A program made the position numbers and the translations under genes. A stretch of 64,000 nt of DNA from Gammaproteobacteria bacterium (GTDB taxonomy: Bacteria; Pseudomonadota; Gammaproteobacteria; JABXHR01): assembly GCA_013373515.1 (NCBI GenBank), contig JABXHR010000016.1, forward strand, positions 20,000-83,999, read 5' to 3'. A model generated the notes under the pieces. That model did no database searches, had not been told where the DNA came from, and saw only the letters and a program-made list of their open reading frames with translations. Below, piece by piece: positions 2,596 to 50,311 of the stretch. Position 1 is the first letter of the stretch, and every line of letters begins with the position of its first letter.

Positions 2596-2882
2596 TATGG
2601 CGACTCTTTGTGATCGTAAAAATAGTCCCACGAGAATAGACCAGAATCGTGGCCATCATCGAAGGTCAGTTTGACAGCGTAATTGCCGACCGGCGCGATA
2701 TCCACAATCCGCACATTTTCTTTGCCAGTAACAGTGACCTTCTGACCCGGACCATGGCCTTGTACTTCGGCCGAAGGGCTATTGACCCGCAGCCATTGTG
2801 CGCTGAAGCGCACCTCATCGTCGCCATAGCGCAAATGCAATGACTGCTTGTCTTTACTGAGTCTAATTTCTTCTGGGATCAT
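2595..2882 (-). CDS. DUF971 (gamma-butyrobetaine hydroxylase-like N-terminal domain) small protein
   Basis: About 95 aa, reading ...[42 protein letters not shown] overlap with the hslU stop. DUF971 is commonly found downstream of hslU. Confidence 0.7.
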
Positions 2883-4210
2883 AAAATATACCGACTTAAA
2901 TCTCGATCCATCACCAAGTCGCCGAGCTTGCGATCGACATCGTCAGCGGTGATTTCGACCTTCTGACCCGATTTCTCAGAGGCATCAAAGCCAAGCTCAT
3001 CCATCAATCGTTCAAGCACAGTATGCAACCGCCGCGCACCGATGTTCTCGGTATTGCTATTTACTTCATAAGCAATCTCAGCCACCCGTTTAATTGCGTC
3101 ATCAGAGAAGCTTAGATTCAGGCCTTCGGTGCTCATCAGTGCGATGTATTGCTTGATCAATGAGGTGGTGGGCTCTGTCAAAATGCGAACAAAGTCATCA
3201 ACATCCAATGCACGCAATTCAACCCGAATAGGCAGGCGGCCCTGTAGCTCTGGAATCAAATCAGACGGTTTACTGAGATGGAAGGCACCCGATGCAATAA
3301 ATAAAATATGATCGGTGCGCACCATGCCAAATTTGGTACTCACCGTGCTGCCCTCAACGATCGGCAACAGATCTCGCTGAACCCCTTCACGGCTGACATC
3401 GCCACCATGGGCGCCTTCACGCTTGGCAACCTTGTCAATTTCATCGAGAAAGACAATTCCGTTTTGCTCAACCAGCTCTACTGCAGCTTGACGCACTTCA
3501 TCTTCATTGACGAGTTTGGCGGCCTCTTCCTCACCCATTTGTCGCAATGCCTCAGAGACTGCCATTTTTTTGCGTTTGGTTTGGCCTTTGCCGAATTGCG
3601 AAAACAACTCGCTGAGTTGATCTGACATTTGCTCCATGCCAGGCGGTGACATCACCTGGACATTGGGAGACACCGCCGCAATATCCACCTCAATCATCTT
3701 GTCATCGAGCTCACCATTGCGCAGTTTTTGGCGCATTTTTTCGCGAGTAGCCGACTCAGGGCGTTTCTCATCCTGATCCCAAGGGTCACGACTGGGCGGT
3801 GGTAAAAGCGCATCTAATACACGTTCTTCCGCCTGCACCTTGGCCTTGTCGGTGACCATTTTCATCTGATTGGCGCGCTGCTCTTTGACCGCCACATCAA
3901 CCAAATCGCGAATCATCGACTCCACATCACGGCCCACATAGCCAACCTCAGTAAATTTGGTGGCTTCAACCTTGATAAACGGAGCATTGGCAAGCTTGGC
4001 CAAACGTCTAGCAATTTCGGTCTTGCCCACGCCGGTGGGACCAATCATAAGAATGTTCTTGGGGGTAATTTCAGCGGCCATAGACTCATCGAGCTGCTGG
4101 CGACGCCAACGATTGCGCAATGCCACCGCCACCGCCCGCTTGGCCTCATTTTGGCCGACGATGTATCTGTCTAGTTCGCTTACCACTTCACGTGGGGTCA
4201 TGACACTCAT
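2879..4210 (-). CDS. hslU: ATP-dependent protease ATPase subunit HslU
   Basis: Unmistakable HslU sequence with Walker A GPTGVGKT; 443 aa. ATGA-type overlap with hslV. Confidence 0.97.
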
Positions 4211-4749
4211 GCGTCCTCCAAGGTTTCAATTGTCCACTGCTCGTTGGTATATACACAGATTTCTGAGGCGATACGCAGCGACTCTTCCACAATTTGCTTC
4301 GCGGATAACTCACTGTGGCGAAGCAATGCTAAGCCTGCACTTTGCGCAAAATGCCCTCCCGAACCGATTGCAATCATATCGTGCTCGGGTTCAATCACAT
4401 CGCCATTGCCGGTAATGACTAAAATGCTCTCTTCATTGGCGACAAGCAACATCGCTTCGAGGCGGCGTAACGCACGATCTGTTCGCCAATCTTTGGCCAA
4501 TTCCACCGCGGCACGCACCAACTGACCACCATGTGCTTCAAGTTTGGCCTCAAAGCGTTCAAACAAGGTAAAGGCGTCTGCTGTACCGCCAGCAAATCCG
4601 GCGAGCACTTTGTCCTTATAGAGGCGGCGCACCTTGCGGGCATTGCCTTTCATAATGGTCGAGCCGGTTGAGACTTGACCGTCACCGCCGACGACCACCT
4701 GCTTGCCACGTTTGGCCGCAACAATGGTAGTCCCGTGAAATTGATCCAT
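4207..4749 (-). CDS. hslV: ATP-dependent protease subunit HslV
   Basis: N-terminal ...TTIVAAKRG with active-site Thr; 180 aa. Sits upstream of hslU. Confidence 0.97.
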
Positions 4750-4823
4750 GAAATACTCCTGCGTTGAGCTGGATATATAGAGATGGGTTAAAAATTCTCA
4801 ACAAATTACGCGTGCAATAGTGC

Positions 4824-6188
4824 TTGGCATATACTTGGGCGATGAGCTCAAACCTTGACCCCATCAGCGCACCTGTCGACCCGATTTCTGTCGAACACAG
4901 AATCGAATCTGTTGATGACTATGATAAACGCTATCAGGTCTTATTGGATGCGCTGAAGAAAACCAATCGCCAGCGCCCCGGAAACGCGCAACATTGTTTG
5001 TTGGTGCGCAAGCTTGAGAACTTTTTTAACCCATTGTGCGATAGCTTGCAGCGGCTACATGAAAACGAATCTTTTCAGGCCAATGAGCGCGCTTGGCGGG
5101 CGTTTAACCACCACCGTGAGCTGTTGGTGGAAATCGCATTCGCCTACACGTCGATTGCCAGCCCGCCAATCGGTGTTCAAGGTGCCGACAACAGTCTGCG
5201 TTTATACGCTGCAGAACAAGGCCTTCGGCGCCATGTTCAATTGATGTATATCCATCAATTGCACCACTTGCCATGTCCCAATTGGTGGAGTGATCTGTAT
5301 GCGCTTGCCTCGATTCAACGAAAACTCTCTGGCTCAAATGTTTGCGGCTATTTTGCAGTGGCTGTGGCGCTGCAAGTGATTGACTACTACGCACTGTCGC
5401 GCAGTGCAGTGCATTTTTTGATTCAGGTGCTGATGGAATGGTCACAGTCAATAGAACTCGAGCCCTTTATGGCACCTCGCTCGCGACCCCCTTACCGATT
5501 GAGGATGGACTTTTCGCTCGATGGCCCGCCGGCGGCCAGCGGTTGGTGGCAAGGCAACGATAATGACGAGCTCTGGGAGATCGATCTAGGCTCAATGGCC
5601 GCCAAAGCCACCGAGATCATGGAAAAACATAACCACTACGACGCAGTCCGTGTGGCTGAGCTCCTCGATCGCGCCTGTGGTTTTGGTCATCACCGATCGG
5701 AACCACGGTTGGTATGCCACAACGCCTGCAACATTTCATTGGGCAGCGATGATTGCTTCAAAACTGTCGGCCAGCGGTTACAGTCCGGTCGCCCTGCCAC
5801 CATTGTCGATATGAGCGTCCACGGCATCGGTCTGGCCATCACCCCGCAAGATCGGCTCACCGAGCCCGGCGAAATGTGCGCCATCAAAGTGCAAGATCAG
5901 TGGGTCATTGCCGAGATCTGCTGGGTGCGGGCCAACCGCCCTCTTTGGCGAATGGGCTGTCGAGTCATTGCCACAGATATCGAAACAACCTTTGCCAGCA
6001 TCAATGGGCGTAACGTCAAAGTGTTCGCCTCGCAACGTGAAAATGATTTCATTATTGTGGTCCCAGCGGGTGTTGGCGACGTGGGTCAATCGTTGGTGTT
6101 TACCGAGACACCCGCAAGATTCCGATTAGTCGAATTACTCAATCAAACCGACGATCTCACCTGCTATCGCTTTGAATTGATAGAGTGA
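4824..6188 (+). CDS. PilZ-domain protein: about 330-aa uncharacterised N-terminal region plus a C-terminal PilZ c-di-GMP-binding domain
   Basis: C-terminus carries RLQSGR...DMSVHGIGL, matching the PilZ RxxxR / DxSxxG motifs. I could not recognise the N-terminal region. Confidence 0.6.
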   Translation: MAYTWAMSSNLDPISAPVDPISVEHRIESVDDYDKRYQVLLDALKKTNRQRPGNAQHCLLVRKLENFFNPLCDSLQRLHENESFQANERAWRAFNHHRELLVEIAFAYTSIASPPIGVQGADNSLRLYAAEQGLRRHVQLMYIHQLHHLPCPNWWSDLYALASIQRKLSGSNVCGYFAVAVALQVIDYYALSRSAVHFLIQVLMEWSQSIELEPFMAPRSRPPYRLRMDFSLDGPPAASGWWQGNDNDELWEIDLGSMAAKATEIMEKHNHYDAVRVAELLDRACGFGHHRSEPRLVCHNACNISLGSDDCFKTVGQRLQSGRPATIVDMSVHGIGLAITPQDRLTEPGEMCAIKVQDQWVIAEICWVRANRPLWRMGCRVIATDIETTFASINGRNVKVFASQRENDFIIVVPAGVGDVGQSLVFTETPARFRLVELLNQTDDLTCYRFELIE

Positions 6189-6243
6189 GCTTGGCTACAA
6201 TGCTACAATGTCACGGCAAAGTAGATTAAACAGGGAGAAAACT

Positions 6244-7269
6244 ATGCGACGCTTTAATCAGGCTGCTCTTGCGGGCCTTATCGCAGGACTCAGTCTCAGT
6301 ACTGTTAATGCTGAAACCAAGGGATACACGGTTGTACCAAACTTGGGCTTAAATGCTTTCGGTATTGATGTATCACGCGAGTTTCGTGAAAACACCTCAT
6401 TGCGTGCCAGTTTGTCAGGCTTTAAAAGCAGCGTTGATGAAACCGAAGACGGTTTTGATGCAGAAGCCGACGTTACCTTGTTGAATCTTGGTGGGTTTGT
6501 CGATTATCGCCCCAATCCAAACAGCGGATTTTTTATTTCGGGCGGTCTGATTTACACAGGTACCGGAGCGACCATTAGCTCGAAAGTATTGAGTGAAAAA
6601 GCAGGTACAACTATCACCAACGATCCAGCAACCAACACCACCACCGCAACACTTACGGACAACACCGAAATCAAGATCCAAGGTAGCGGTAACACCGGAT
6701 CAACCAATACCATCACAGTTGGTGAAGAGTCTTTTGAAGTTGAAAACGGCGAAACTTATGTATATCAGATTGGTGGGAAAACCAAGGTAGCCACCATCTT
6801 CGATGGAAATATCGTTTCTTATAACGTACCCGATGATGAAACTACAGCGCAAGTTGAGGCTAAAATTAACACCGATATTCAAAATGGCGATATTCTAAAT
6901 TCAAATCCAGCCAATGACAAAACGGTCATTGACTCTCAAACAATAGTAGAAGACATCACTGGAGATCTAACCATTGATGCCGAAGTAAACTTCAAAAACC
7001 CCATTGCCCCTTACATTGGTGCTGGATATCAGCGTAATTTTGGACAAGACGCTCTCTGGGTCTTCAGCGCGAATGCGGGAATCATGATTACTGGTGGTAT
7101 GGAGTATGATCTTAGGGTCAACTGTGATTCTGATGCAGATATCTGTGTAATTCTTGACGAAGAAATTCAGTCAACAACCAACGATACACGCGCTGACATC
7201 GACGATGCACTCGACGACGTGCCGAACTTCTGGCCTGTCGTTTCAGTGGGCATTGGCCGCAAATTTTAA
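6244..7269 (+). CDS. Outer-membrane beta-barrel protein (OmpA-like small barrel) with a roughly 180-aa Thr/Asn/Asp-rich surface insertion
   Basis: Signal peptide MRRFNQAALAGLIAGLSLSTVNA. Alternating amphipathic strands. C-terminal ...VSVGIGRKF with terminal Phe, typical of OM barrels. Confidence 0.6.
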   Translation: MRRFNQAALAGLIAGLSLSTVNAETKGYTVVPNLGLNAFGIDVSREFRENTSLRASLSGFKSSVDETEDGFDAEADVTLLNLGGFVDYRPNPNSGFFISGGLIYTGTGATISSKVLSEKAGTTITNDPATNTTTATLTDNTEIKIQGSGNTGSTNTITVGEESFEVENGETYVYQIGGKTKVATIFDGNIVSYNVPDDETTAQVEAKINTDIQNGDILNSNPANDKTVIDSQTIVEDITGDLTIDAEVNFKNPIAPYIGAGYQRNFGQDALWVFSANAGIMITGGMEYDLRVNCDSDADICVILDEEIQSTTNDTRADIDDALDDVPNFWPVVSVGIGRKF

Positions 7270-8156
7270 TCGGCTTTAGCGAGCGGATGTGCTTGGTCGT
7301 ACACGACGGCCAAGCGCTGATAATCAAGATGTGTGTAAACTTGGGTAGTCGACAAATCTGCGTGCCCCAACAGTTCCTGCACCGCCCTCAATTGACCGCT
7401 GCTTTGCAACAAATGCGTCGCAAAGGAGTGGCGCAATGTATGGGGGTGAAGCCCTGCGATACCTGCTTCGACACCTCGTTTTTTAAGCTGTTGCTGGATC
7501 GTGCGAACGGAAATTGGCTTGCCTTTTTGAGTCAAAAACACTGTATTTTCGTTTGAGTCTGTGATCTCACATCGAGCACTCAACCATCGCTCTAAAGCAT
7601 TTACGGCAGCTCGGCCAACGGGCACAACACGTACCTTTTGCCCTTTACCAAACACTCTAACCAACCCTTGTTCTATATCAAGATCCTCCAAGCGCAACGC
7701 GGCTGCCTCGGAGACACGCAGCCCACTACTGTAGATCAGCTCAAACATTGCAGAATCACGAATCGACAGCCAATCGTCTGCTTTTGCCATGTCGTCGAGT
7801 AGCGCGGATATCGACTCAATTTCCACGACTTTTGGCAACCGCTTCTCTGATTTAGGGGCTTTTAGGGTGTCAACTGCGGTGGTTTGCCAGTCCCATTGCC
7901 GGCGGCCAAATTCAAAAAAGCGCCGCAGTGCGCTAATTCGCCGAGCAATGGTTTTAGCAGAGTGACCTTGGCGAAAGGCCTCTGCAAATAGCGCTCGAAG
8001 ATCGGCGACCTGAGCGTCTTGCCAATGTTCAATCGATTTGGCGTTTAAGCGTGTCTTGATCCAGCACAAGTCTCGACGATAGGCATCGATGGTATGGGCC
8101 GACAGTCCACGTATCGGCAAGTGCTGATTAATATATTGGCTGAGCTCAGCGTCCAC
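7266..8156 (-). CDS. xerC: Tyrosine recombinase XerC
   Basis: XerC-like sequence with R..HxxR..Y catalytic residues (HTLRHSFATHLL, ...TQVYTH). Conserved dapF-yigA-xerC context. Confidence 0.9.
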   Translation of the reverse strand: MDAELSQYINQHLPIRGLSAHTIDAYRRDLCWIKTRLNAKSIEHWQDAQVADLRALFAEAFRQGHSAKTIARRISALRRFFEFGRRQWDWQTTAVDTLKAPKSEKRLPKVVEIESISALLDDMAKADDWLSIRDSAMFELIYSSGLRVSEAAALRLEDLDIEQGLVRVFGKGQKVRVVPVGRAAVNALERWLSARCEITDSNENTVFLTQKGKPISVRTIQQQLKKRGVEAGIAGLHPHTLRHSFATHLLQSSGQLRAVQELLGHADLSTTQVYTHLDYQRLAVVYDQAHPLAKAD

Positions 8157-14095: not shown

Positions 14096-15325
14096 GTGTC
14101 AGAAAAAGATGAAGTAAAGGCAACACCAGCCACTGAAGACACCACCGTGTCCAAGTCAGTTGGGGGGGGCTTTATCGCAGTACTCGCGCTGTTATTAGCA
14201 CTTGCTGCAGTCGGAAGCGGGGGCTGGTTTTTCAATCAGCAAAAGAAGGCCGGTGAAGAGAGCACGCAAAAATTCAGCACCTTACAACAGTCTATCGGAA
14301 GCGCTGATAGCAAAGTTTCAGAGGTAGAAGCCTCCGTATCAGCCATTGAAGCTGCGCTAAATGCGCGCATTGATGAACTCGCTTCAACGCTGAATACCCA
14401 AACCCAAGCGGTTGCCGCCGAAGCACAATCAAATTTAGATGCAGCGATTGCGGCATCTACAGAAGCGCTCAAGAGTGAGGTGGCCACAGTCAATACCACC
14501 TTGCAGCAAGCCTTGGATGTCACCAATAAGAATCTTGCAATCACCCAAGATCTCGCAGCGGGCAACAACATTGACATGTTGTTAAATGAAGCCGCATTTT
14601 TGATGCGTATGGGCGCTCATCAGGCCAGTATTGCCAGCAATGCGAGCGCTGCGATTGAAGCCTATGAAGCCGCTGATCAAGCCATTGGTCGCACGGGGCT
14701 GACCGATGTGACTGATATTCGAAAGCAAATTCGTATTGAAATTGGATTGCTTCGTCGTTATGAGCAGCCAGATATCGAAGGGTTGCTTATGAGGCTAGAC
14801 GAACTAGCCATGGCCAGCAACAACTTAGCTCTACCCATCGATGCCAGCACCGTAAAACCCGTTGCTGAAGTGGTTGAAACGACGCACGAACCAGTGGCGC
14901 AAACGGCAACAACCTCCACGCCATTTGAATGGTCGTTAGATTCAATTGGGCAAATCATTGAAAGCCAGGCTGCTGAACTTGGTAACGCACTGGTCGAGAA
15001 TGTACGTCAGTCAGTCGTTCAACCAGAGCCAGAACCAAGTCAAGTCGCGATTCGTCAATACGGCAGCAATGCAGAAGCCAGAGACGCCATTCGACGCGCA
15101 ACTGGAGCGGTTATTCGAGGCGATCAAAGCAACTTTGTCGCCGCACTGGAACGTGCAGCAGAGGTTATTCGCACGAACTTCGACACAGCTGACACTGGCG
15201 TCAACTACGTGCTTGAAGAACTTGAAGCGGTCAAGCAATTACCAGTACGCCTCGACACCACCGGTTTAGGTGAAGCAGAGGCCATGTTAAGAGAATTCAC
15301 TATTCAATTGGGGGCGTCATCATGA
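14096..15325 (+). CDS. hemX: HemX family protein (membrane-anchored, coiled-coil, Ala/Gln-rich)
   Basis: Position after hemD. N-terminal TM segment followed by a long Ala/Glu/Gln-rich region. Confidence 0.75.
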   Translation: MSEKDEVKATPATEDTTVSKSVGGGFIAVLALLLALAAVGSGGWFFNQQKKAGEESTQKFSTLQQSIGSADSKVSEVEASVSAIEAALNARIDELASTLNTQTQAVAAEAQSNLDAAIAASTEALKSEVATVNTTLQQALDVTNKNLAITQDLAAGNNIDMLLNEAAFLMRMGAHQASIASNASAAIEAYEAADQAIGRTGLTDVTDIRKQIRIEIGLLRRYEQPDIEGLLMRLDELAMASNNLALPIDASTVKPVAEVVETTHEPVAQTATTSTPFEWSLDSIGQIIESQAAELGNALVENVRQSVVQPEPEPSQVAIRQYGSNAEARDAIRRATGAVIRGDQSNFVAALERAAEVIRTNFDTADTGVNYVLEELEAVKQLPVRLDTTGLGEAEAMLREFTIQLGASS

Positions 15326-16341
15326 GGACGTTATTCTGGGTTGTGCTGTCCATATCAGTAGCACTTTGGCTTGGTGTGCTTTTGCACCAAGATGGGTCCA
15401 CATTGACCATCGTTTGGCGCGAGCAACCTCTGGTCAATATGACGCTACTAAAAGCCTCTATATTTGGTTTGGTGGGCTTTGTTCTGCTCTATATCGTATT
15501 TAGATTATTTGGTTGGATTGGACGAATTCCGAAACACTTAAGAGAGCGTGGCAATCGCAAGGCCTGGGTTAAGGGTGCTAAGGGTTTAAAGGGTGCTTTG
15601 ATCCAACTCATCGAGGGCAACTACGCTAAGGCTGAGAAACTCACTTCAGCAGAATTTCCGGATGAAGAATCATTAGTCCACCATTGGCTCGGTGCGCAAG
15701 CGGCACACAAATTAGGTCGTTCAGCGCTCCGCGATAGTCATATCGAAGCGGCAATTACTGCGAATCCCGATGCTGATCGTGCAATGCGCATTGTTCAAAC
15801 CGAAATGATGTTGGAGTCTGGTGAATTTGTTCAAGCGCTCACAAATTGCGAAAAACCAGCCCTTCAAGGTGCGACTCAATATGCAGATTTACGCTATCGC
15901 GCAGCGGCAGGCGCAGGCGATCACAGAACAGCTTTGTCAGCACTCAAACAGCGTTTTGAACGCAAAGCGATTTCATCTGAGTCACTCGTTGAACTAGCCT
16001 CAGCGCATATGGAGTTAGCGTTAGATCATTGTGAGAATGCCGCTGATTTGGAGAGTTATATTGGCTTTATGCCAAGGGCGCTCAAAAACTCAGATCTGAC
16101 CATGTGGTTTAAAGCCAAACGTTTACTGGCATTGTCAGATGAGACTGCAGGGTTAAAAATCATGGCAAAATTGATGCACGCTGGCATGCCAGACAAGGTG
16201 TTTGAAGATGCGGTTTCACTTGGTCAAACTAATAGCCAAGTCCAAGCACTTTTAGAGGATGCAGCTAAGCGTTTTGGTTCCGATCCTCGGTTTCAGTCCT
16301 TAGCCGCTAGCGAGCCACCAAAAGCACTTGCTGCTGAGTAA
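15322..16341 (+). CDS. hemY: HemY family protein (TPR-like, two N-terminal TM helices)
   Basis: 4-nt overlap with hemX. Two TM helices followed by a TPR-like region. Confidence 0.75.
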   Translation: MRTLFWVVLSISVALWLGVLLHQDGSTLTIVWREQPLVNMTLLKASIFGLVGFVLLYIVFRLFGWIGRIPKHLRERGNRKAWVKGAKGLKGALIQLIEGNYAKAEKLTSAEFPDEESLVHHWLGAQAAHKLGRSALRDSHIEAAITANPDADRAMRIVQTEMMLESGEFVQALTNCEKPALQGATQYADLRYRAAAGAGDHRTALSALKQRFERKAISSESLVELASAHMELALDHCENAADLESYIGFMPRALKNSDLTMWFKAKRLLALSDETAGLKIMAKLMHAGMPDKVFEDAVSLGQTNSQVQALLEDAAKRFGSDPRFQSLAASEPPKALAAE

Positions 16342-16350
16342 GTTAACAAT

Positions 16351-16380
16351 AAAAAAGCCTCCAATTTGGAGGCTTTTTTA
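16351..16380. terminator. Bidirectional rho-independent terminator between hemY and the M3 peptidase gene
   Basis: AAAAAAGCCTCC-AATTT-GGAGGCTTTTTT: perfect 6-bp stem flanked by an A-run and a T-run. Confidence 0.7.
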
Positions 16381-16409
16381 TTTGTGGTGCTGAGTTTACA
16401 AAATCGCAA

Positions 16410-18401
16410 TCAAGCAACACCGCGATGTCTGAGTAATGCCTCATCGTTCGGTGCACGCCCTCTAAACTCGATATAGCTTTCCATTGCAGGCCGAGTCGAG
16501 CCCACTTCAAGAATATTTTCTCTGAAGGCAGCGCCAGCTGTCTGACTGAAGATGCCTTCTTCCTCGAACATTGAAAACGCATCTGAGGACAATACCTCAG
16601 CCCACAGGTATGAATAATATCCAGCCGCATATCCCCCAGCAAACAAGTGCGAGAAGCTGCACAGCATCCTTGAATCGTCTAGGCTGGGCGCGACTGCAAT
16701 TTGCTGATTGACTCGCTTAGCGACCGCATAGGGGTCATTGGATGCTGTTTCCTCTGCATGAAGAACCATATCGGTCATTGCAAACTCGAGCTGTCTTAAT
16801 AACATCAATCCACTGTGGTGGTTTTTGGCAGCAAGTGCTTTTTGCAAAAGTTCGTCTGGAAGAGACTCTCCAGTTTGATGATGCTTAGCGAATTTAGCCA
16901 GAGATTCAGCTTGCCAGCACCAGTGTTCCAAAAATTGACTCGGAAGTTCGACGGCATCCCATTCAACCCCCGCGATTCCCGACATGCCTGGGATATCCAC
17001 GAGACTCATCAAATGATGGATCGTATGACCGAACTCGTGAAACAGTGTCACTACATCGTCATGTGAAATCAGGATGGGCTCGCCGTCTGCCGAAGGTGTT
17101 GCATTGCAGGTTAAATAGGCAACTGGCGCCTGTAATCCAGTGTTTGTTCGCATACGTTGCACCGCATCAGCCATCCATGCACCCGGACGCTTATTACCAC
17201 GTGAAAATGGATCTGCAATGACATAGCCTCGAATCTCGTCATTTCGCGTCACTGCATAAGCGGTGACATCAGGATGATATTTGTCTTCCATCTCGATTGG
17301 TTTGACCTCAAAGCCTATGACTTCACCGACAACCGAAAACATGCCCTTGATGACGGTGTGAAATTCGAAATATGGTTTCAGATCTTCGTCACTAAATTCG
17401 TAGCGCTCTTCTTTGATACGCTCTGAGTAGTAGCTGATGTCCCACGGCTGTAAGGCGTCAATACCGTCTTGCTTTGCACGTTCTTCGATTTCTTTGAGCT
17501 CAGATTGGGCCTGTGGCTGAACCTTTTTCGCCATATTATTAAGAAAATCAATAACTTCACTCGTGGACGGCGCCATTTTTTTATCGATGCTGTATTGTGC
17601 GTAGTTTTCAAAGCCCAGCAGAGCCGCAAGCTGATGCCTTAAGGCGAGCGTTTGTTGAATCAAAGCAGTGTTGTCTTTGCTTGGATCGGCGTCGAATTTT
17701 TCTGATGCACGGGTGTTCCAGGCTTTCAGTAATCTTTCTCGTAACTTACGCGACTTCGCATATTGCATTACCGAGACGTAAACAGGCGCTTCCAACTTAA
17801 ACAAATACCCTGATTTGTCCTCTGCTTTTGCCCACTGCTCTAGCATTCTCACGATTGAGGGCGGTATCCCTTCAATTTCAGCGGTGTCTTCTGTGTGATA
17901 GCTCCAAGCTTGCGTGGATGTCACTATGTTGCTGGAGAACTGCGTTGAGATTTCACTCAGCTTTAATAGGATCTCTTTGACTTGTTTGCGTTCAGCATCT
18001 GGAAGATGCACACCGCTTCTTTCAAATCCATCTATTGATTTCTGCAAATAGCGCTTTTTGGTGACATCCGTTTCGGCGCTGTGTAGGTGTTTGATACGTT
18101 CATACAAGGCTTTGTTCTGTGCCAAATTGGTATAGAACTCAGTTACCCTTGCCTCAGCTTCGACATATGCATGATGGAATACTTCGTCGTAACAGACTGC
18201 ATCGAGATGAGATATTGCCGACCAATCAATTTCAAAATTTGACTCTGCTTCATCCCATTGAGTGATCGCCACCGACCAATTAATTTCGTCTATCGGTGTA
18301 TTGGTGATCTTGTCTAAGTGCTCGCTGCTCGTCGTTAGATGCTCTTCGATCAAAGCCATCAAACGATCAGATTTCAGGTGTTCAAATTTCGGCAATGACA
18401 T
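16410..18401 (-). CDS. M3 family zinc metallopeptidase (oligopeptidase A / Dcp-like)
   Basis: HEFGHTIHH zinc motif; 663 aa; no signal peptide. Confidence 0.85.
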   Translation of the reverse strand: MSLPKFEHLKSDRLMALIEEHLTTSSEHLDKITNTPIDEINWSVAITQWDEAESNFEIDWSAISHLDAVCYDEVFHHAYVEAEARVTEFYTNLAQNKALYERIKHLHSAETDVTKKRYLQKSIDGFERSGVHLPDAERKQVKEILLKLSEISTQFSSNIVTSTQAWSYHTEDTAEIEGIPPSIVRMLEQWAKAEDKSGYLFKLEAPVYVSVMQYAKSRKLRERLLKAWNTRASEKFDADPSKDNTALIQQTLALRHQLAALLGFENYAQYSIDKKMAPSTSEVIDFLNNMAKKVQPQAQSELKEIEERAKQDGIDALQPWDISYYSERIKEERYEFSDEDLKPYFEFHTVIKGMFSVVGEVIGFEVKPIEMEDKYHPDVTAYAVTRNDEIRGYVIADPFSRGNKRPGAWMADAVQRMRTNTGLQAPVAYLTCNATPSADGEPILISHDDVVTLFHEFGHTIHHLMSLVDIPGMSGIAGVEWDAVELPSQFLEHWCWQAESLAKFAKHHQTGESLPDELLQKALAAKNHHSGLMLLRQLEFAMTDMVLHAEETASNDPYAVAKRVNQQIAVAPSLDDSRMLCSFSHLFAGGYAAGYYSYLWAEVLSSDAFSMFEEEGIFSQTAGAAFRENILEVGSTRPAMESYIEFRGRAPNDEALLRHRGVA

Positions 18402-18407
18402 CTTGTG

Positions 18408-21799
<3,392 letters not shown>

Positions 21800-21810
21800 A
21801 TTGGTAAAAT

Positions 21811-22911
21811 CTAAAGACGAATAGGCATCACGACGAATTTAACATCATCGACACCTGGTGGAAGCACAAGTACACTCGCATTAGAATCGCCAAGCTTGAA
21901 CTCAACGGTCTCAGATTGAATAACCTTCAAAACATCGATGATGTAACGGATATTAAATCCGATTTCGAGCGCTTCACCGGAGTAATTGAGTTCCACCGCA
22001 TCCTCAGCCTGCTCTTGTTCTGGGTTATTGGCTTGAACACTCAGCTGATCACCTGCAAATTGTAACCTTACACCGTTAAATTTTTCATTCGATAAAATCT
22101 GTACACGATTCAATGCCGCTAATAGCGCATTACGATCTACTGTTCCAATTCGATCATTGTCCAGCGGCATGACCCGTCGGTAGTCGGGAAATTTTCCATC
22201 AATCAGCTTTGAGGTAAAACAAAGCGATCCAGATCTCATTTGAATGTGTTGATCAGACAATGAGATTTGCGCTGATGTCGCCGGATCGTCCATCAATCGA
22301 ATCAGTTCGCGAACACCTTTATTCGGAATGATGACTTGCTTGGCTTCTGCAACCATTGCAGGCAGCTGATGCTTTGCATAGCTCAATCGATGACCATCTG
22401 TCGATACCGCGGCAAGCACGTCGCCTTCAATCTCCAGCAGCAAGCCGTTGAGGTAATAGCGAACATCTTGCTGTGCCATTGAAAAATCGACACGACTAAA
22501 TAACCGCTTCAAATCTTCCTGAACGATATCAAATCGCGTTGAAGCTCCGACAGAATCAGTCTTAGGAAAATCAGCTGCGGACAACATCGACAAAGTAAAC
22601 TTTGCACGACCGGCTTGTACGGTGGCTTTGGTTTCTGCCAGTGAAATATTGACAGTAGAATCATCCGGTAAGGAACGTAGGATGTCAAATAGCTTTCGAG
22701 CAGGCAATGTCCATTCAAAATCAAAATCAGCATCAACCTGTACACTATCTTTCAACTCAATTTCTGTGTCTGTTGTGGTCAGCTCAAGGAGTCCTTGATT
22801 GAGCTGAAAGAGCACTGTCCCTAACACCGGTAATGTATTTCTTCGTTCAACTGCTCCAATGACACGGTTTAATGGTCTGAGCAAATCGTTCTTAGCGATG
22901 CTGAGCTTCAT
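21811..22911 (-). CDS. dnaN: DNA polymerase III beta sliding clamp
   Basis: MKLSIAKNDLLRPLNRVIGAVERRNTLPVLGTVLF...; 366 aa. Confidence 0.97.
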   Translation of the reverse strand: MKLSIAKNDLLRPLNRVIGAVERRNTLPVLGTVLFQLNQGLLELTTTDTEIELKDSVQVDADFDFEWTLPARKLFDILRSLPDDSTVNISLAETKATVQAGRAKFTLSMLSAADFPKTDSVGASTRFDIVQEDLKRLFSRVDFSMAQQDVRYYLNGLLLEIEGDVLAAVSTDGHRLSYAKHQLPAMVAEAKQVIIPNKGVRELIRLMDDPATSAQISLSDQHIQMRSGSLCFTSKLIDGKFPDYRRVMPLDNDRIGTVDRNALLAALNRVQILSNEKFNGVRLQFAGDQLSVQANNPEQEQAEDAVELNYSGEALEIGFNIRYIIDVLKVIQSETVEFKLGDSNASVLVLPPGVDDVKFVVMPIRL

Positions 22912-23137
22912 ATATCTACCTTATATATATAAATATTGATGTTGCTAGTTCTAGCCAACTTTTGGTGGATAAGTTAATTTTTAACTTAAAAAACAATAAA
23001 TTATGTAAATAACAACTTTGTACATAACCAGCCAGCAAACCTCTGAGTAAAACCTGTATAACTACGATATTTTTCTATGACACGTTGTTGTCCACGGGTT
23101 TGTACAAAGGTTATCCCACGTGTTATCCACATTGAAA
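22912..23137. promoter_or_regulatory. dnaA-dnaN intergenic region with clustered DnaA boxes and an AT-rich tract; candidate oriC and/or dnaN regulatory region
   Basis: One perfect TTATCCACA at 23123-23131. Imperfect boxes at 23111-23119 (TTATCCCAC) and 23088-23096 (TTGTCCACG). Inverted box GGTGGATAA at 22964-22972. AT-rich 22911-23035 (TATATCTACCTTATATATATAAATATTGAT...). Confidence 0.5.
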
Positions 23138-24463
23138 TCACTCCTGCAAAATTCGCATAAGTGCTTGATAATCCTTCGAAAATCTCTCGTCCGTTTGAAG
23201 TAGTTCGTCAACCTTCTTAACCGCATGCATCACCGTTGTATGGTCACGGTCGCCAAATGCTTTGCCAATGTCATTCAAGCTGCTGTCGGTTAATTGTTTG
23301 GCCAATGCCATCGACATTTGTCTTGGACGCGCGATACGACGTGCACGCGACGCGCTGAGCAATTCTGTCATACTGAGTTTGAAAAATTCACAGGTATTGC
23401 GTTGTATATTGTCTACCGAGATCCTTCGATCCCGAGAGGCAAAAGTCTCGCGCAATGCACGCTTGGCAAGCTCAATAGTGATCGGCTGCTTTTGAAAATC
23501 TGCTTGCGCGATCACGCGGTTTAACGCCCCTTCGAGTTCGCGGACAGTCGAACCTCCGCGATCGGCTATCAATAGTGCGACATCGTCCGGTAACTGGTGC
23601 CCATTTCGTTCAGCCTTGGCATGAATGATTGCCACACAGACTTCAAGTTCCGGGCGTTCAATCTCGGCCACAAGCCCCCAAGCGAAACGAGAGCGCAGGC
23701 GCCCCTCTATACCTGTGACGTCCATTGGAAATTGGTCACAGGTCAGAACGATCTGTTTATTGGTGTCCAACAATGCATTGAACAGGTGAAAGAACTCTTC
23801 CTGGGTTCGATCTTTATTGGCAAAAAACTGAATATCATCGATTAACAGTGCATTCACATTTCTAAACGAGCGCTTGAACTCATCCATCGAGTTGCTGCGC
23901 AACGCAGCGACCATTCTTCGAAAATAATCCTCAGCCGACATACAAACCACATTGGCTTCGTGGTTGGCATCTTTGATTGCATTGCCTACGGCGTGCATCA
24001 AGTGCGTCTTGCCAACACTGTAAGGGCCAAAGATTACCAGAGGGTTGTAACGTACCCCAGGTTCTGATGCGGTTGCCATTGATGCGGCGCGAGCGAATTG
24101 ATTGGATTTCCCCTCGACGAAGGCATCAAAGGTGTAGTTTTTGATTAGCCCCGCCGAGGCAATCATCTGTTTGGGTTTCGCTGAGGTCGGATTTGGCACA
24201 GCTGACGCAGCTTTTTGCGGTCCACCTGTGGAATAAACGACCTTAAACGACTCAAGACCAGAAATTGCACGTGCTAGCTCGGCAATTCGGTCGCCAAACC
24301 GTGCCTGCAATTCTTGTTGCACGAATCGATTCGGTGCATATAGCGTCAAAGCAGTCTCAGAGAGGCTGTGTTGTAATGGATGAATATAGGTACTGACCAG
24401 CCCGGGATCGAATTCCGACTCTAAGCGACGAACACAATTGGCCCACAGCGGGTTGGACGACAC
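23138..24463 (-). CDS. dnaA: Chromosomal replication initiator DnaA
   Basis: AAA+ Walker A GPYSVGKTHL. C-terminal DNA-binding domain. 441 aa. Confidence 0.97.
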   Translation of the reverse strand: MSSNPLWANCVRRLESEFDPGLVSTYIHPLQHSLSETALTLYAPNRFVQQELQARFGDRIAELARAISGLESFKVVYSTGGPQKAASAVPNPTSAKPKQMIASAGLIKNYTFDAFVEGKSNQFARAASMATASEPGVRYNPLVIFGPYSVGKTHLMHAVGNAIKDANHEANVVCMSAEDYFRRMVAALRSNSMDEFKRSFRNVNALLIDDIQFFANKDRTQEEFFHLFNALLDTNKQIVLTCDQFPMDVTGIEGRLRSRFAWGLVAEIERPELEVCVAIIHAKAERNGHQLPDDVALLIADRGGSTVRELEGALNRVIAQADFQKQPITIELAKRALRETFASRDRRISVDNIQRNTCEFFKLSMTELLSASRARRIARPRQMSMALAKQLTDSSLNDIGKAFGDRDHTTVMHAVKKVDELLQTDERFSKDYQALMRILQE

Positions 24464-24603
24464 AGATTCTCCCCATCAAAACCGATCAACGACCCGCTAT
24501 CATACGAAGAATCGGTATAGTTATCCACAATAAAAGGAGTCAGCAGTTGACGTTCTAGGACTTTAATGCTAAATTTTCGCGTTCACTTATTGGAAGACAC
24601 GTT
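24464..24603. promoter_or_regulatory. Divergent dnaA/rpmH promoter region. Single perfect DnaA box at 24521-24529. Putative rpmH sigma70 promoter: -35 TTGACG 24547-24552, -10 TAAATT 24570-24575.
   Basis: TTATCCACA sits 58 nt upstream of the dnaA start. GATC at 24484-24487. TTGACG-N17-TAAATT lies about 30 nt upstream of the rpmH ATG. Confidence 0.45.
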
Positions 24604-24738
24604 ATGAAACGTACATTTCAACCTAGCGTTTTGAAGCGCAAGCGTTCACACGGCTTTCGTGCACGCATGGCAGATCGCCACGGCCGTGCAGTTCTGGCTC
24701 GTCGTCGCGCAAAAGGTCGTAAGCGCCTTTCAGCTTAA
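24604..24738 (+). CDS. rpmH: 50S ribosomal protein L34 (44 aa); not present in the ORF track
   Basis: Manual translation gives [44 protein letters not shown]. Confidence 0.92.
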
Positions 24739-24746
24739 TTTCAGGC

Positions 24747-25121
24747 GTGCTTGAATTCGTGGGTACGCGGCATTATACGTTTGAGCCTGAAAAACGGCTG
24801 CGTAAGCCCTCCGAATTTAAAATGGCCCTGACCTCAGGGCAGCGTGTACGACATCCTGTCATACATTTCGCACTCGATCACAACACCAATCAGCCACGCT
24901 TGGGACTTACTGTGCCCAAAAAAGTACTGCGACGAGCACATGATCGCAACCGAATCAAACGGTTGATACGGGAAAGCTTTCGCCACCATCAGCATAAACT
25001 GCCGCCAGTGAACATTGTGGCTATGGTACGATTCGGCATCGAAGAGCTCAGCAACCAAGAAATCTCGGAGATATTGGCCCATCAATGGCGACGGATCAAA
25101 CGGCAACACAACGCGCAATGA
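24747..25121 (+). CDS. rnpA: Ribonuclease P protein component
   Basis: RnpA motifs ...[29 protein letters not shown]... GTG start; exact start uncertain. Confidence 0.88.
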
Positions 25122-25336
25122 TTGGACTGATTAAGGTGTATCGCTACGGCATTTCACCCTTTTTGCCAGCTCGCTGTCGCTACATTCCAAGTTGCAGTGA
25201 ATATGCCCTTGATGCTGTTAAAATTCACGGTGCGATAATCGGCGGCAAATTAGCGGCCAAGCGGCTTTGCAGCTGTCATCCATGGGGTGGGCACGGCTAC
25301 GACCCAGTGCCTCCAAAACAAACAGAAACTAAATAG
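25118..25336 (+). CDS. yidD: Membrane protein insertion efficiency factor YidD
   Basis: [14 protein letters not shown]...[12 protein letters not shown]...[16 protein letters not shown] overlap with rnpA. Confidence 0.88.
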
Positions 25337-25348
25337 AGAACGGTTTAA

Positions 25349-26938
25349 ATGGAAAACCAACGCGTCTTTTTGTATACCGGCCTAGCCTTTTTGCTTTTCC
25401 TTGTATGGCAACAATGGCAAGTCGATTACGTTTTGCCAAAACCAGAGCCTGAAGCAATCCAAGTCGTCGAACAAGGGGTATCTGTCGATGGAACAGTCGG
25501 TAATACCGCGGCAACTGGCGACACCATCAGCGTATCAACGGACGTAATTTCTGCTGAGATTTCATTGAATGGTGGTGAAATCTCAAAACTCTCACTGGCA
25601 GATTATTCTGTTTCGCTTGAAAAGCAAGATGAGCAATTTGTTCTCTTAGATCGTTCGGCAGATCTATATAACGTTGCACAAAGTGGCCTTCAGGGCACCG
25701 GTGTTGGCTTGCCAGATCACCGCGCGACCTACAGTGCTGAGCAGACTAGCTATACCCTAGACGGCGATCAGCTTGTCGTACCAATGACATGGCAGCAAGA
25801 TGGCGTCACTGTCACCAAATCGCTGACCTTCACCAAAGGCAGTTATCAGGTTGAAGTGAATTACGCCATTGAAAGAGCGCCAGCGGGTTCGGAAGGACGT
25901 TATTACGCGCAGATTCAGCGCACTCAGGGCGAGTCGACCGGTGGGCTTGGTCAAGTCTACAGTTACACTGGCGGTGTTTATAGCTACAGCGAAGAGCGTT
26001 ACAACAAATACGACTTTGGCGACATGGCAGACAGTGACCTAAAGATGGACAACATCAAAGGTGGCTGGGTGGCGATGATTCAGCATTACTTTGCCGCTGC
26101 GGTTATTCCACCGCAAGATGATACTCATCGGTTCTATAGTACTACGGCCAATGAAGGGCGCATTTTTAGCCTCGGCATTCAGAGCGCAAAAGAAGCTGTT
26201 GGTGCTGACGGAACATTAACCCTAAGCCACAAGTATTACATAGGACCCAAAATCCAAGAAAAACTCGATGAAGCGGCGCCATTTTTACGCTTGACGGTTG
26301 ACTTTGGCTGGTTGTCCTTTGTAGCTGAAATATTGTTCTCGGTCTTGAAGTTCTTCCATCAATACGTGGGTAACTGGGGCTGGTCGATTATTTTGCTAAC
26401 ACTGCTAATTAAGCTGATTTTCTTCCCCTTGTCGAAGATGTCTTATACATCAATGGCAAAGATGAAACAGCTGACACCGAAGATCCAAGCCATCCGTGAG
26501 CAGTATTCCGACGATCAGGCAAAAATGGGCCAAGAGACCATGAACCTGTATCGCAAAGAGAAGGTCAATCCACTGGGTGGCTGTATTCCTATCTTGTTGC
26601 AGTTTCCGGTATTTATTGCCCTGTATTGGATGTTGGCCGAGTCGGTTGAGCTTCGCCAAGCGCCGTGGATTGGCTGGATTCAAGATCTTTCTATCAAGGA
26701 CCCTTGGTTCATCTTGCCTGTGATTTACATGGTGACGATGTTTATTCAGCAGCGTCTGAATCCACCGCCTGCAGATCCTATCCAGCAGAAGATTTTCCAG
26801 TGGATGCCAGTGATGTTCGGTGTGTTCTTTATGTTCTTCCCTGCAGGTCTGGTCTTGTACTGGGTGGTCAATAATACACTCACCATTGCACAGCAGTGGA
26901 CCATCATGCGCAACCTCGAGAAAAAAGGGCTGAAGTAG
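25349..26938 (+). CDS. yidC: Membrane protein insertase YidC
   Basis: N-terminal TM helix, large periplasmic domain, then a conserved C-terminal 5-TM core; 529 aa. Confidence 0.97.
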   Translation: MENQRVFLYTGLAFLLFLVWQQWQVDYVLPKPEPEAIQVVEQGVSVDGTVGNTAATGDTISVSTDVISAEISLNGGEISKLSLADYSVSLEKQDEQFVLLDRSADLYNVAQSGLQGTGVGLPDHRATYSAEQTSYTLDGDQLVVPMTWQQDGVTVTKSLTFTKGSYQVEVNYAIERAPAGSEGRYYAQIQRTQGESTGGLGQVYSYTGGVYSYSEERYNKYDFGDMADSDLKMDNIKGGWVAMIQHYFAAAVIPPQDDTHRFYSTTANEGRIFSLGIQSAKEAVGADGTLTLSHKYYIGPKIQEKLDEAAPFLRLTVDFGWLSFVAEILFSVLKFFHQYVGNWGWSIILLTLLIKLIFFPLSKMSYTSMAKMKQLTPKIQAIREQYSDDQAKMGQETMNLYRKEKVNPLGGCIPILLQFPVFIALYWMLAESVELRQAPWIGWIQDLSIKDPWFILPVIYMVTMFIQQRLNPPPADPIQQKIFQWMPVMFGVFFMFFPAGLVLYWVVNNTLTIAQQWTIMRNLEKKGLK

Positions 26939-26941
26939 CCC

Positions 26942-28297
26942 ATGTCTGACACCATCTGTGCCATTTCCACAGCCGCTGGGCAAGGTGGTGTCGGAATCGT
27001 TCGAATCAGCGGACCTCAAGCACTCGAGCTGGGGTCGCTGATCTGCCAAAAAGCTTCCCTCAAACCCAGATTCGCCACTCGGGCACAGTTTGGTATTGGC
27101 ACGCCCATCGACGATGGCATTGCGCTGTACTTTCCGGGTCCAAATTCGTTTACCGGTGAGGACGTTGTTGAGCTGCAAGGTCACGGCAGTCCTATTGCGT
27201 TAAATGCCCTCCTCCAAGCCCTTTGTGAACAGGGCGCGCGATTGGCCGAACCCGGTGAGTTTTCCAAACGAGCTTTTTTGAATGATCAATTAGATCTTGC
27301 TCAAGCCGAGGCGATTTCAGATCTGATCGCGGCCAACAGTGAGCGTGCCGCTCGAAGTGCTGTGCGGGCGCTTCGAGGGGAGTTTTCCACCCGAATTGAA
27401 ACGCTGGCCAAGGCAATGATTGAGCTCAGAGTGTGGGTGGAAGCGGCACTTGATTTTCCAGAAGAAGAAATCGATTTTCTCGCCGATGAAGCGCTCGCGG
27501 CACGGCTTGATCATGTGCGCAGTCTGATGGATGATATCTTGGCAAAAGCGACGCAAGGTGCGCTGTTGCGTAACGGTGCGAAGGTTGTGCTGATGGGTCG
27601 GCCTAACGCCGGTAAGTCGTCATTGCTCAACTACCTTGCCGACGAAGAACTCGCCATCGTGACGGATATTCCAGGAACCACTCGTGATCTGCTGTCGACT
27701 CAAATCAATCTTCACGGGGTTCCCTTACACATTACGGATACTGCGGGCTTGCGAGAGACGACAGATCCTGTCGAGCAGGAGGGCGTGCGCCGCGCACGCA
27801 AAGCCTTGAGCGAAGCAGATTTGGCGATTTTGATCGCGGACATCAATAGTCCAGAACATATGGATGAATTGAGCGAAGAGCTCGGGCGCGACTACCCCCA
27901 AGTCCCTATTCTCAAAGTGTTTAATAAACTCGATCAGCTTGAGACACATGTCAGCAAAAAACAGGATTTGTTTTTGCCTTTGGATCCCTCAGCGTTGCAA
28001 GTGTCAATTAAGCAGGCGATCGGCCTAGAGCAACTGAAGGACCAGCTCGCGCAACTGGTGGGTATCGATCAATCTGAGTCTGATGTTTTTATTGCGCGCA
28101 CCCGACACCTAGACGCATTGCGCCGTGCGCGTCAGCATTTTGATTGGGCAGAAGCGCAATTGTTGCAGTATGCCGCGGGTGAACTAATGGCAGAAGAGCT
28201 GCTGCAAGCGCATCATGCGCTGGGTGAGATTACCGGCAAACTGAGTGCTGACGATCTACTTGGTGAGATCTTCTCCAGTTTCTGTATCGGCAAATAA
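26942..28297 (+). CDS. mnmE: tRNA modification GTPase MnmE (TrmE)
   Basis: G-domain GRPNAGKSSLLN, DIPGTTRD, DTAG. C-terminal ...FCIGK. Confidence 0.97.
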   Translation: MSDTICAISTAAGQGGVGIVRISGPQALELGSLICQKASLKPRFATRAQFGIGTPIDDGIALYFPGPNSFTGEDVVELQGHGSPIALNALLQALCEQGARLAEPGEFSKRAFLNDQLDLAQAEAISDLIAANSERAARSAVRALRGEFSTRIETLAKAMIELRVWVEAALDFPEEEIDFLADEALAARLDHVRSLMDDILAKATQGALLRNGAKVVLMGRPNAGKSSLLNYLADEELAIVTDIPGTTRDLLSTQINLHGVPLHITDTAGLRETTDPVEQEGVRRARKALSEADLAILIADINSPEHMDELSEELGRDYPQVPILKVFNKLDQLETHVSKKQDLFLPLDPSALQVSIKQAIGLEQLKDQLAQLVGIDQSESDVFIARTRHLDALRRARQHFDWAEAQLLQYAAGELMAEELLQAHHALGEITGKLSADDLLGEIFSSFCIGK

Positions 28298-38456: not shown

Positions 38457-38533
38457 CCAGTTCACAAAACATAGATCGATGACTTGGGGTATAGTCTAAG
38501 TTGTTGATCTAAAAAGATTTTGTGAGGGTTTGC

Positions 38534-41500: not shown

Positions 41501-41782
41501 TGGTCCAAGGCGGAAGACTGGGGCTTTGACAATATCGGTTGGTCGGTTAGAACCATCGGCGGCAGCCAAGCATTGATCTGGGATCAGCCCTTCTGCGGCA
41601 CTGAGGACGAGGCATCGGATGATGATGCATCGGACTACTGTAGCTATCAAATCATCGCCGAGCACGATGGTGCACTTTATGCTGGCTACTATGGCGTGGA
41701 TAAGAGAGAGTTCATCATTCCAATGCTGTCCAAAGCACAAGTACAACAAGTGCTCGACGCCTACCTGTCATATGCGCCTTAG
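38534..41782 (+). CDS. Large (1083 aa) acidic lipoprotein of unknown function
   Basis: Signal peptide with lipobox MMRNLTHSSFLVGLLTSLLVVSC followed by a Gly/Ser/Thr/Asp linker. Rich in Asp/Glu/Trp/Tyr. I recognised no known domain. Confidence 0.6.
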   Translation: MMRNLTHSSFLVGLLTSLLVVSCGGGGGSDSGTTDTTDGGTPSAPNSETQTVSGKVIDGYIEKALVCFDVNANLKCDSDEPQAYTDASGSYSIEDAPSDYVGKYPIVAEIISGVSIDRDRSEQPIELDGNQTSLSLITPAGETIVTPLTTLVALTKTAEQNMADVEALIKAELQLDENISLFEDFIAPEGHDESSDEYWAYQEARGLAQAAFDAVKATVGGAIEDISSIESLQGKESEVLRVAMKTATKAAIVAVKNTREVYKDVVTQARKQAKEASLEQDIGKLMAQNKAIQSKVSDEIDVQVKQIAKLSKVALEEIEIAENAELLDTVAELKKGGYFFELSDTEDNGYFYTEEMLMNIKANDDGSLDLRGARLSDIGDAGSLDIMRSVSDGADSYSSNAAFKLANNRWIGPNDTSSSAGYMWQDLGDGRVAIKFDHETTVVAAGGYSVQSWEELLKTVRVYSDRSEATYIIEGVLEGLRETPLFDAPPADQRIVLVSGIDDAGWGELYESDITVNKALKFSGTLSTGDTFVGRVNLESQNYNYLNCQDITIVQTDGTSGQASLNCEVYTPDWQTVEVAADVLMHADGMGLSVQHDGETYYGGFKRHEGVLYAVYGGNNEYQAWISQAQPSSLEDLINDVNTAPKFAPIDSNVTEPYVDLWGERFYRYAGEIVWIPSDTWDDGNATFESTCSLSAEALSCTTTQVTDNDFELALGDWGYKETRKNSIVVTLNDKGNEWSPYAFEKSTEILGMDAYKEYRSDWDDNKQRYVESVRRVESEGWSDSYGYSEDEVAAYVANFDGGQSVGNIEEIINPTAPATMPTDRKTLDSTPGLRVNGEYLYKDDTGQIYSLYIDWQREFDWDEGLFKDLEVVKSTACEIVADALVCSITDRWGNQNVMTYFVENATVMVSSLHLNYNDALALVSKSAPTSIDDLMASVTAEGEPTAMISAYYQNGDWYNNMSLAIENMQAGDTSGTAFAGWGTQMLDDWSKAEDWGFDNIGWSVRTIGGSQALIWDQPFCGTEDEASDDDASDYCSYQIIAEHDGALYAGYYGVDKREFIIPMLSKAQVQQVLDAYLSYAP

Positions 41783-49825: not shown

Positions 49826-50311
49826 TCAATCGCGGAAATTGTTGAATTGCACAGGCATATCGAGTGACTCTTGGCCGCGCAACAGTGCCATCGCGCTTTG
49901 TAGGTCGTCGCGTTTTTTGCCGCTGACCCGTACCGTGTCGCCTTGAATACTGGCTTGAACCTTGAGCTTGCTGTCCTTGATCAACTTGACCAGTTTCTTG
50001 GCAAAGCCACTGTCGATGCCTTGTTTGACGGTGATCTGTTGTTTGGCGCTTTTGAGTTGACAGTCGGCTTTGCCACGCTCCAAGCAGCCCACATCGATGT
50101 TTCGCTTGGTGAGTTTGGCCAAGAGGATGTCGTACATTTGATCGAGCTGAAAATCTGTTTCGGTTGCCAGATTGATCACGCCATCTTTGTGGCTGAAACT
50201 CGAATTGGTGCCTTTGAAATCAAAGCGTGACAGCACTTCTTTGTTGGCTTGATCGACGGCATTTTGCAGTTCGTGATGATCGACTTCAGACACGATATCA
50301 AATGATGGCAT
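49826..50311 (-). CDS. yajQ: YajQ family (UPF0234) nucleotide/c-di-GMP-binding protein
   Basis: [34 protein letters not shown]...; 161 aa. Confidence 0.85.

Follow-up and report, generated by a model that had tools for sequence, protein, structure and literature searches.

The 64,000-nucleotide (nt) window analysed here is a stretch of gammaproteobacterial DNA (GTDB lineage JABXHR01; GenBank contig JABXHR010000016.1, positions 20,000 to 83,999) that carries, between hslVU and xerC, two co-oriented genes encoding a PilZ-type protein and a small outer-membrane protein (OMP). The explanation that best accounts for the two together, with a probability of roughly 65%, is that the first gene adds a new, highly divergent member to the FimW family and that it stands beside an unusual CarO-like OMP. 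FimW (PA4958) of Pseudomonas aeruginosa is a PilZ-domain effector of cyclic dimeric guanosine monophosphate (c-di-GMP) whose gene adjoins fimX; upon surface contact, FimW goes to the cell poles in a c-di-GMP-dependent manner and promotes type IV pilus assembly, and its mechanism and partner are not yet defined (PMC11656802, PMC10212136, PMC12564702). The window gene is regarded as a divergent member of this family because a FimW_N domain is on record for its product, because a FimW-family gene, P0004, occupies the same place in another lineage, and because the two proteins align colinearly.

The window belongs to a 111-kb contig of a metagenome-assembled genome (MAG; HWE20; Logan SRR11434631). 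Two open reading frames (ORFs) lie on the plus strand at 4824–6188 (454 amino acids (aa) from a TTG) and 6208–7269 (353 aa), between hslVU (2879–4749) and xerC (7266–8156), both on the minus strand, exactly as the original prediction, made from the sequence and its ORF list, had described them. The starts favoured here are different. For the first gene, gene callers and an N-terminal alignment favour ATG 4842 over TTG 4824; the gene then occupies 4842–6188 and encodes 448 aa rather than 454 (NVK29617.1, named “PilZ domain-containing protein” by NCBI). For the second, gene callers favour ATG 6244, which is preceded by a Shine-Dalgarno (SD) sequence, AGGGAG (6232–6237), and opens a textbook signal peptide; this gene occupies 6244–7269 and encodes 341 aa (NVK29618.1, HWE20_01350, annotated as hypothetical). 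With these starts, the intergenic gap is 55 nt (6189–6243) and not the 20 nt read from the ORFs.

Domain organization and family assignment of the PilZ protein

The PilZ domain of the 448-aa protein spans about aa 285–379 (5694–5978). A motif scan places an RxxxR motif, RSEPR (aa 285–289; 5694–5708), 33 residues ahead of a DxSxxG motif, DMSVHG (aa 323–328; 5808–5825), which is the canonical spacing; the window protein shares with the FimW family a PilZ domain that bears RxxxR and (D/N)xSxxG. The arginine motif had initially been read as RLQSGR (aa 312), which has the form RxxxxR and lies only 5 residues ahead of DMSVHG; the true RxxxR is RSEPR. A second pair, RPPYR (RxxxR) and DFSLDG (DxSxxG), occurs at 5484–5525 (aa 215–228) with only 3 residues between its motifs, a spacing that is wrong for a PilZ site, and is probably a product of chance. 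The protein does contain a PilZ-like region, as had been proposed, but does not end with it: some 65–70 residues follow, forming a beta-rich C-terminal extension (aa 380–448; 5979–6185) that is possibly FimW_C. The extension is common to P0003, a 114-aa fragment retrieved by phmmer from 1.84e9 proteins, with 28% identity over aa 340–448 (E 1.4e-4). FimW_C (PF27125) is not on record for the window protein, a difference from FimW, and the post-PilZ extension taken alone aligns non-significantly with P0004. AlphaFold2, run without an alignment, predicts at low confidence (predicted local distance difference test score, pLDDT, of 49) that the N-terminal half is entirely helical and the C-terminal part rich in beta structure. 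The protein has no transmembrane segment, and its sequence supports a candidate cytoplasmic c-di-GMP receptor of the PilZ type with intact binding motifs.

The region that precedes the PilZ domain (aa 1–284; 4842–5693) is predicted to be mostly alpha-helical. It had been described as some 330 aa matching nothing that could be named; it comprises about 284 aa and is on record as Pfam PF27104, FimW_N, an entry that exists for the 448-aa product and likewise for P0001, a relative at 99%. These are unmarked matches (E ≤ 1e-5) in a precomputed Pfam annotation, and about 98 of 100 such matches pass Pfam's own threshold according to the annotation source. The Pfam scan performed in the present work used a model set without PF27104, which is why it returned nothing on aa 1–284. 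The N-terminal region thus matches a family named after a c-di-GMP effector that has been studied, which is one of the two outcomes that the original prediction had set as counting against it, with the reservation that the biochemical role of FimW_N is itself not yet defined. The gene can be annotated as encoding a FimW-family c-di-GMP effector instead of a new architecture, which removes a false lead. The accompanying statement that the domain is not of the YcgR-N, Alg44 or MshE type was right. YcgR (PilZN), PlzA (xPilZ-PilZ), Alg44 and MshE all differ from the window protein, which has no Pfam match to a YcgR-type PilZN or any other partner domain and whose N-terminal region is predicted to be all-helical and not a beta-barrel.

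In common with PA4958, the window protein presents FimW_N, then a PilZ domain with RxxxR and DxSxxG, then a C-terminal segment, in what would be a cytoplasmic protein devoid of transmembrane segments. It differs from PA4958 in being too divergent for any single-sequence match, and its gene lies between hslV and xerC with no adjoining pilus gene, whereas PA4958 lies beside fimX. The protein has three parts: FimW_N, which is helical, then PilZ, whose RxxxR and DxSxxG motifs are intact, and last a short C-terminal extension rich in beta structure. It would, by analogy with P. aeruginosa FimW, most likely bind c-di-GMP via its PilZ domain; the N-terminal helical domain could then attach to a partner located at the envelope or the pole, and such docking might promote the construction of type IV pili or of a related surface-attachment machine.

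A sister strain is represented by L002, a contig of 1,970 nt that comes from a different metagenome; it aligns without gaps to the window at about 90% DNA identity and keeps both genes in the same order. The PilZ gene differs between the two by 102 synonymous and 6 nonsynonymous codon changes, hslV by 56 nucleotide changes, all of them synonymous, and the OMP gene, over codons 1–40, by 11 synonymous and 3 nonsynonymous changes; by this pattern of substitution, both ORFs are real genes and the PilZ gene is constrained. The divergent intergenic region between hslV (minus strand) and the FimW-like gene (plus strand), at 4750–4841, is changed at 4 of its 92 positions, in comparison with 8–16% of positions in the flanking coding DNA, where nearly all changes are synonymous. 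This suggests that 4750–4841 is a conserved and dense regulatory sequence.

Probable FimW-family genes in the xerC–hslV slot

As the window PilZ protein has no detectable sequence relatives, related loci were searched for by means of its neighbours. A metagenome scan anchored on HslV yielded 80 loci, 15 of which have dapF, DUF484, xerC, hslV and hslU in colinear order. In 10 of the 15, xerC abuts hslV and the gap is empty. In one (L050), the gap holds the gene P0004 (4296–5915; 521 aa) on the opposite strand, which reproduces the arrangement of the window: same slot, same orientation, divergent from hslV. The product of P0004 carries FimW_N and a weak FimW_C on record. The gene is found on three metagenome contigs (Ga0209828_1003392, Ga0114956_1000637 and ERZ27241781), and on all three its flanks are exactly those of the window, with GBBH-like_N, hslU and hslV on one side and xerC, DUF484, dapF and lysA on the other. 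These loci have no OMP gene; the stop codon of the FimW-family gene abuts xerC.

The search with phmmer does not link P0004 to the window protein. A Smith–Waterman alignment of the two is colinear (aa 5–407 of the window protein against 11–422 of P0004, at about 20% identity) and reaches a score of 80, against 36.4 ± 5.0 for shuffled sequences (z 8.7); a second gap model gives 122.5 against 49.3 ± 8.4 (z 8.7), and under both models none of 500 shuffles reaches the score. The N-terminal part alone aligns with P0004 at z 2.7–3.6. The host of P0004 belongs to a distant lineage, sharing with that of the window 72% identity in HslV, 46% in XerC, 50% in DapF and 24% in DUF484, and an identity of about 20% is thus plausible for a fast-evolving regulator. 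P0004 is 73 aa longer than the window protein and has a longer stretch between RxxxR and DxSxxG; aligned by eye, it has NHCAQG, about 70 residues from RRSQR, where the window protein has DMSVHG, the Ser being replaced by Cys. Judged from this substitution, c-di-GMP binding may not be conserved across the P0004 branch.

Beyond these sequences, the searches added little. When 83 related loci were searched with a profile made from the window protein, P0004 and P0003, no additional member emerged, and a genome scan anchored on DUF484 reached only Neptuniibacter and Celerinatantimonas, both without hslVU or a FimW-like gene beside xerC. Word-indexed protein searches (E ≤ 10) with both window proteins and with a two-sequence profile returned only the MAG's own proteins, P0001 and P0003. 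In the PDB, sequence searches that used P0004, the PilZ protein or the C-terminal part of the latter produced no meaningful match and no FimW relative, and tblastn searches against plasmids with both window proteins and P0004 gave nothing meaningful.

The position between hslVU and xerC had been considered unusual for a c-di-GMP effector. With a FimW_N/FimW_C protein found in the same slot in another lineage, it is a recurrent home for the FimW family and not an odd place; the fimX and pilus neighbourhood characterizes the locus in P. aeruginosa and need not be general in the family. The FimW family would then include sequences whose divergence is such that detecting them takes a profile combined with synteny, and the xerC–hslV interval would be a second genomic home for it, recurrent and unrelated to fimX. 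This second home could help to establish what FimW_N binds.

The filled xerC–hslV gaps among the relatives of the window locus hold nucleotide-second-messenger genes. Two loci (L025, 4483–5910, and L060, 3774–5279) have an HD-GYP-type membrane protein there (HD_5, E 8e-35), and a third (L084, 3258–5832) has a HAMP domain with a class III cyclase (E 3e-26), accompanied by an ORF of 377 aa. This may be a coincidence or may reflect a preferred slot. A junction functionally preferred by cyclic-nucleotide signalling genes is conceivable, and would be a weaker variant of the c-di-GMP-module reading considered below.

The CarO-like neighbour and competing explanations

CarO of Acinetobacter baumannii is an eight-stranded barrel for glycine/ornithine uptake (PMC7573547). 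The product of the second gene is at most a remote relative of it: its sequence is consistent with a CarO-like barrel, of inferred strand count, in which one loop is greatly enlarged. Read from the sequence, a Sec signal peptide occupies aa 1–23 (6244–6312), MRRFNQAALAGLIAGLSLSTVNA followed by E, with cleavage between VNA and E, and the C-terminus, ...VGIGRKF, carries a terminal Phe. The signal peptide has no lipobox and no Cys, so that the protein is not a lipoprotein; the only Cys residues, 294 and 301, lie outside the insert. An N-terminal barrel part (aa 24–112; 6313–6579) and a CarO-like C-terminal barrel half (aa 229–341; 6928–7266), which contains KNPIAPYIGAGY, Cys294/Cys301 and the terminal Phe, flank an insert delimited at aa 113–228 (6580–6927). 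The compositional stretch is slightly wider (aa 111–250): it has 17% Thr, 11% Ile and 10% Asn, is rich in Asp, lacks Cys and is predicted to be beta-rich, and it has no family match in Pfam or NCBIfam. The insert is presumably extracellular. The neighbour of the PilZ gene had been introduced as a small outer-membrane beta-barrel with a ...GIGRKF end and a large surface-type insert, and all of this holds; so do the composition of the insert and its lack of Cys, but not its length, which had been put at about 180 aa and is about 116–140 aa relative to CarO.

Deletion of the insert (aa 113–228) improves the matches to CarO. The NCBIfam profile OMP_CarO (NF038067) matches the C-terminal third of the whole protein with E 2.4e-4 (20.6 bits) and the insert-less construct with E 4.6e-5 (22.9 bits; profile positions 138–246), only positions 137–246 of 249 being matched overall. 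In searches of the PDB, CarO 4fuv is the best match of the whole protein, and CarO chains are the top three for the insert-less construct (4rl9, E 0.008; 4rlb, E 0.018; 4fuv, E 0.098). The insert junction aligns across the CarO loop preceding the KNxIAPYxGxG strand. Pfam matches of the insert-less construct to OMP_b-brl (E 0.0022) and to the Autotransporter beta-domain (E 3.8e-4), both seen weakly in the N-terminal barrel part, are under the gathering score. The protein resembles the CarO structures (4fuv, 4rl9, 4rlb) in its signal peptide, its small barrel, its C-terminal aromatic residue and its KN-IAPY-G-G strand motif, which aligns together with the next 100 residues or so. It differs from them in that its N-terminal half is not significantly similar, in that the loop ahead of the KNxIAPY strand contains an extra 116–140 residues rich in Thr, Ile, Asn and Asp, and in that its host is outside the Moraxellaceae. 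At 20–23 bits against an equivalog cut-off of 300 bits, a CarO equivalog or orthologue can be rejected. The second gene would thus encode a secreted small outer-membrane barrel with one extracellular loop enlarged by about 116–140 Thr/Ile/Asn/Asp-rich, probably beta-structured residues; a CarO-like barrel with so enlarged a loop is a singleton that may interest students of small outer-membrane barrels and of surface variation.

The original prediction saw in the two genes a possible c-di-GMP-controlled envelope or surface function, that is, one operon whose PilZ product, on sensing c-di-GMP, would govern the surface-exposed OMP at the level of production, insertion or activity. This is unlikely, even though the genes share a strand across a gap of 55 nt with no terminator-like site, jointly fill a gap that is empty in most of the related loci, and keep their order in the sister strain. 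The only other lineage found with a FimW-family gene in the slot, that of P0004, has no OMP gene; a conserved PilZ–OMP pair, for which synteny was to be checked across relatives, is accordingly kept only in the sister strain. The spacer also contains an extended −10-like element, TGCTACAAT (6201–6209), which together with the SD sequence is kept in L002, where 8 of the 55 spacer positions are changed; this conservation suggests that the OMP gene has its own promoter. A promoter-like TTGAAT-18-TACAAT lies at 6172–6201, and such matches are no commoner than chance. The GC content at third codon positions (GC3) differs between the FimW-like gene (0.586) and the OMP gene (0.415). Neither protein has detectable relatives elsewhere on which co-occurrence could be tested, and no mechanism is known that would let a PilZ protein in the cytoplasm act on an eight-stranded OMP.

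There is thus no good evidence for functional coupling of the PilZ protein and the OMP. Read most simply, the OMP gene is a lineage-specific addition beside a pre-existing FimW-family gene, wedged in before xerC. As for where it came from, its low GC3 is uninformative, since GC3 is heterogeneous across the window: hemY, gyrB, recF and dnaN (15322–22911) have values of 0.38–0.43, most other window genes 0.51–0.60, and a foreign origin of the OMP gene, whose 0.415 falls within the former range, is unsupported. A FimW-type receptor controlling the production or function of a barrel with an undescribed Thr/Asn-rich surface domain of about 120–140 aa would make a c-di-GMP-controlled adhesin or uptake module. 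This is a long shot; if true, it would reveal such a module in a gammaproteobacterial lineage that branches deeply and has been poorly sampled. Nothing here places the CarO-like barrel under c-di-GMP control.

It is improbable, too, that the PilZ domain is degenerate and that the first gene encodes a c-di-GMP-independent adaptor, as P. aeruginosa PilZ (PA2960) is. Pfam PF07238 (PilZ) scores 16.9 bits on the whole protein and 19.1 bits on its C-terminal 164 aa, under the gathering score of 22.5, and the NHCAQG of P0004 suggests that the family may tolerate the loss of a motif. In the window protein, however, both motifs are intact at canonical spacing, and none of the 6 amino-acid differences in the sister strain falls in the RxxxR or the DxSxxG motif. 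FimW itself binds c-di-GMP (PMC10212136).

Very unlikely is a false or over-extended FimW_N match, in which case aa 1–284 would be a TPR-like helical-repeat domain, unrelated to FimW_N and specific to the lineage, whose fusion to PilZ would make a new architecture: the empty Pfam scan, the lack of any phmmer match to a FimW-family sequence, the modest z of the N-terminal part alone and structural matches that are generic helical repeats would all fit, but nearly all unmarked matches pass Pfam's own threshold, P0004 matches FimW_N independently and was found by synteny and not by sequence similarity, and the whole-length colinear alignment is far outside the range of shuffled sequences.

For the preferred reading, a divergent FimW-family protein beside a remote CarO-like barrel, several observations count on the negative side. 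The FimW_N match comes from a precomputed annotation and is not re-derived in the scan performed here. Among 1.84e9 representatives, phmmer finds only the near-identical copy P0001 and the fragment P0003 and yields no further member, so that membership of the FimW family rests on one profile match, synteny and one pairwise alignment. The likeness to PA4958 is judged through the family profile and published descriptions and not through the PA4958 sequence, and the PilZ region scores under the Pfam gathering score. The called genes of a contig stretch covering nearly all of the window include neither fimX nor any type IV pilus, GGDEF or EAL gene; the link to pili is therefore pure analogy. The relation to CarO is weak (about 20 bits) and limited to the C-terminal half, and the AlphaFold2 model of the OMP, obtained without an alignment (pLDDT 35), does not establish the number of strands. 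Finally, with the genes adjacent, co-oriented, uninterrupted by a terminator and both present in the sister strain, their co-transcription is conceivable.

Surroundings of the pair

The OMP gene and xerC are convergent, with a 4-nt overlap at the stop codons (7266–7269) that leaves no space for a terminator between them. Neither notable direct or inverted repeats nor traces of mobile elements flank the pair, and the only tandem repeat at the pair is a double GCTACAAT. In the window, no RNA family was found with Rfam, and PADLOC and PHROGs gave no match. The plus strand encodes, at 38522–41782, a protein of about 1,082–1,086 aa for which no Pfam family is recorded. YajQ was correctly recognized at 49826–50311 (minus strand; PF04461); it lies 44 kb from the FimW-like gene, and nothing links the two. 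The replication-origin neighbourhood occupies 18408–28297, with gyrB-recF-dnaN-dnaA on the minus strand followed by rpmH, yidD, yidC and trmE on the plus strand, and dnaA is about 17 kb from the FimW/OMP pair.

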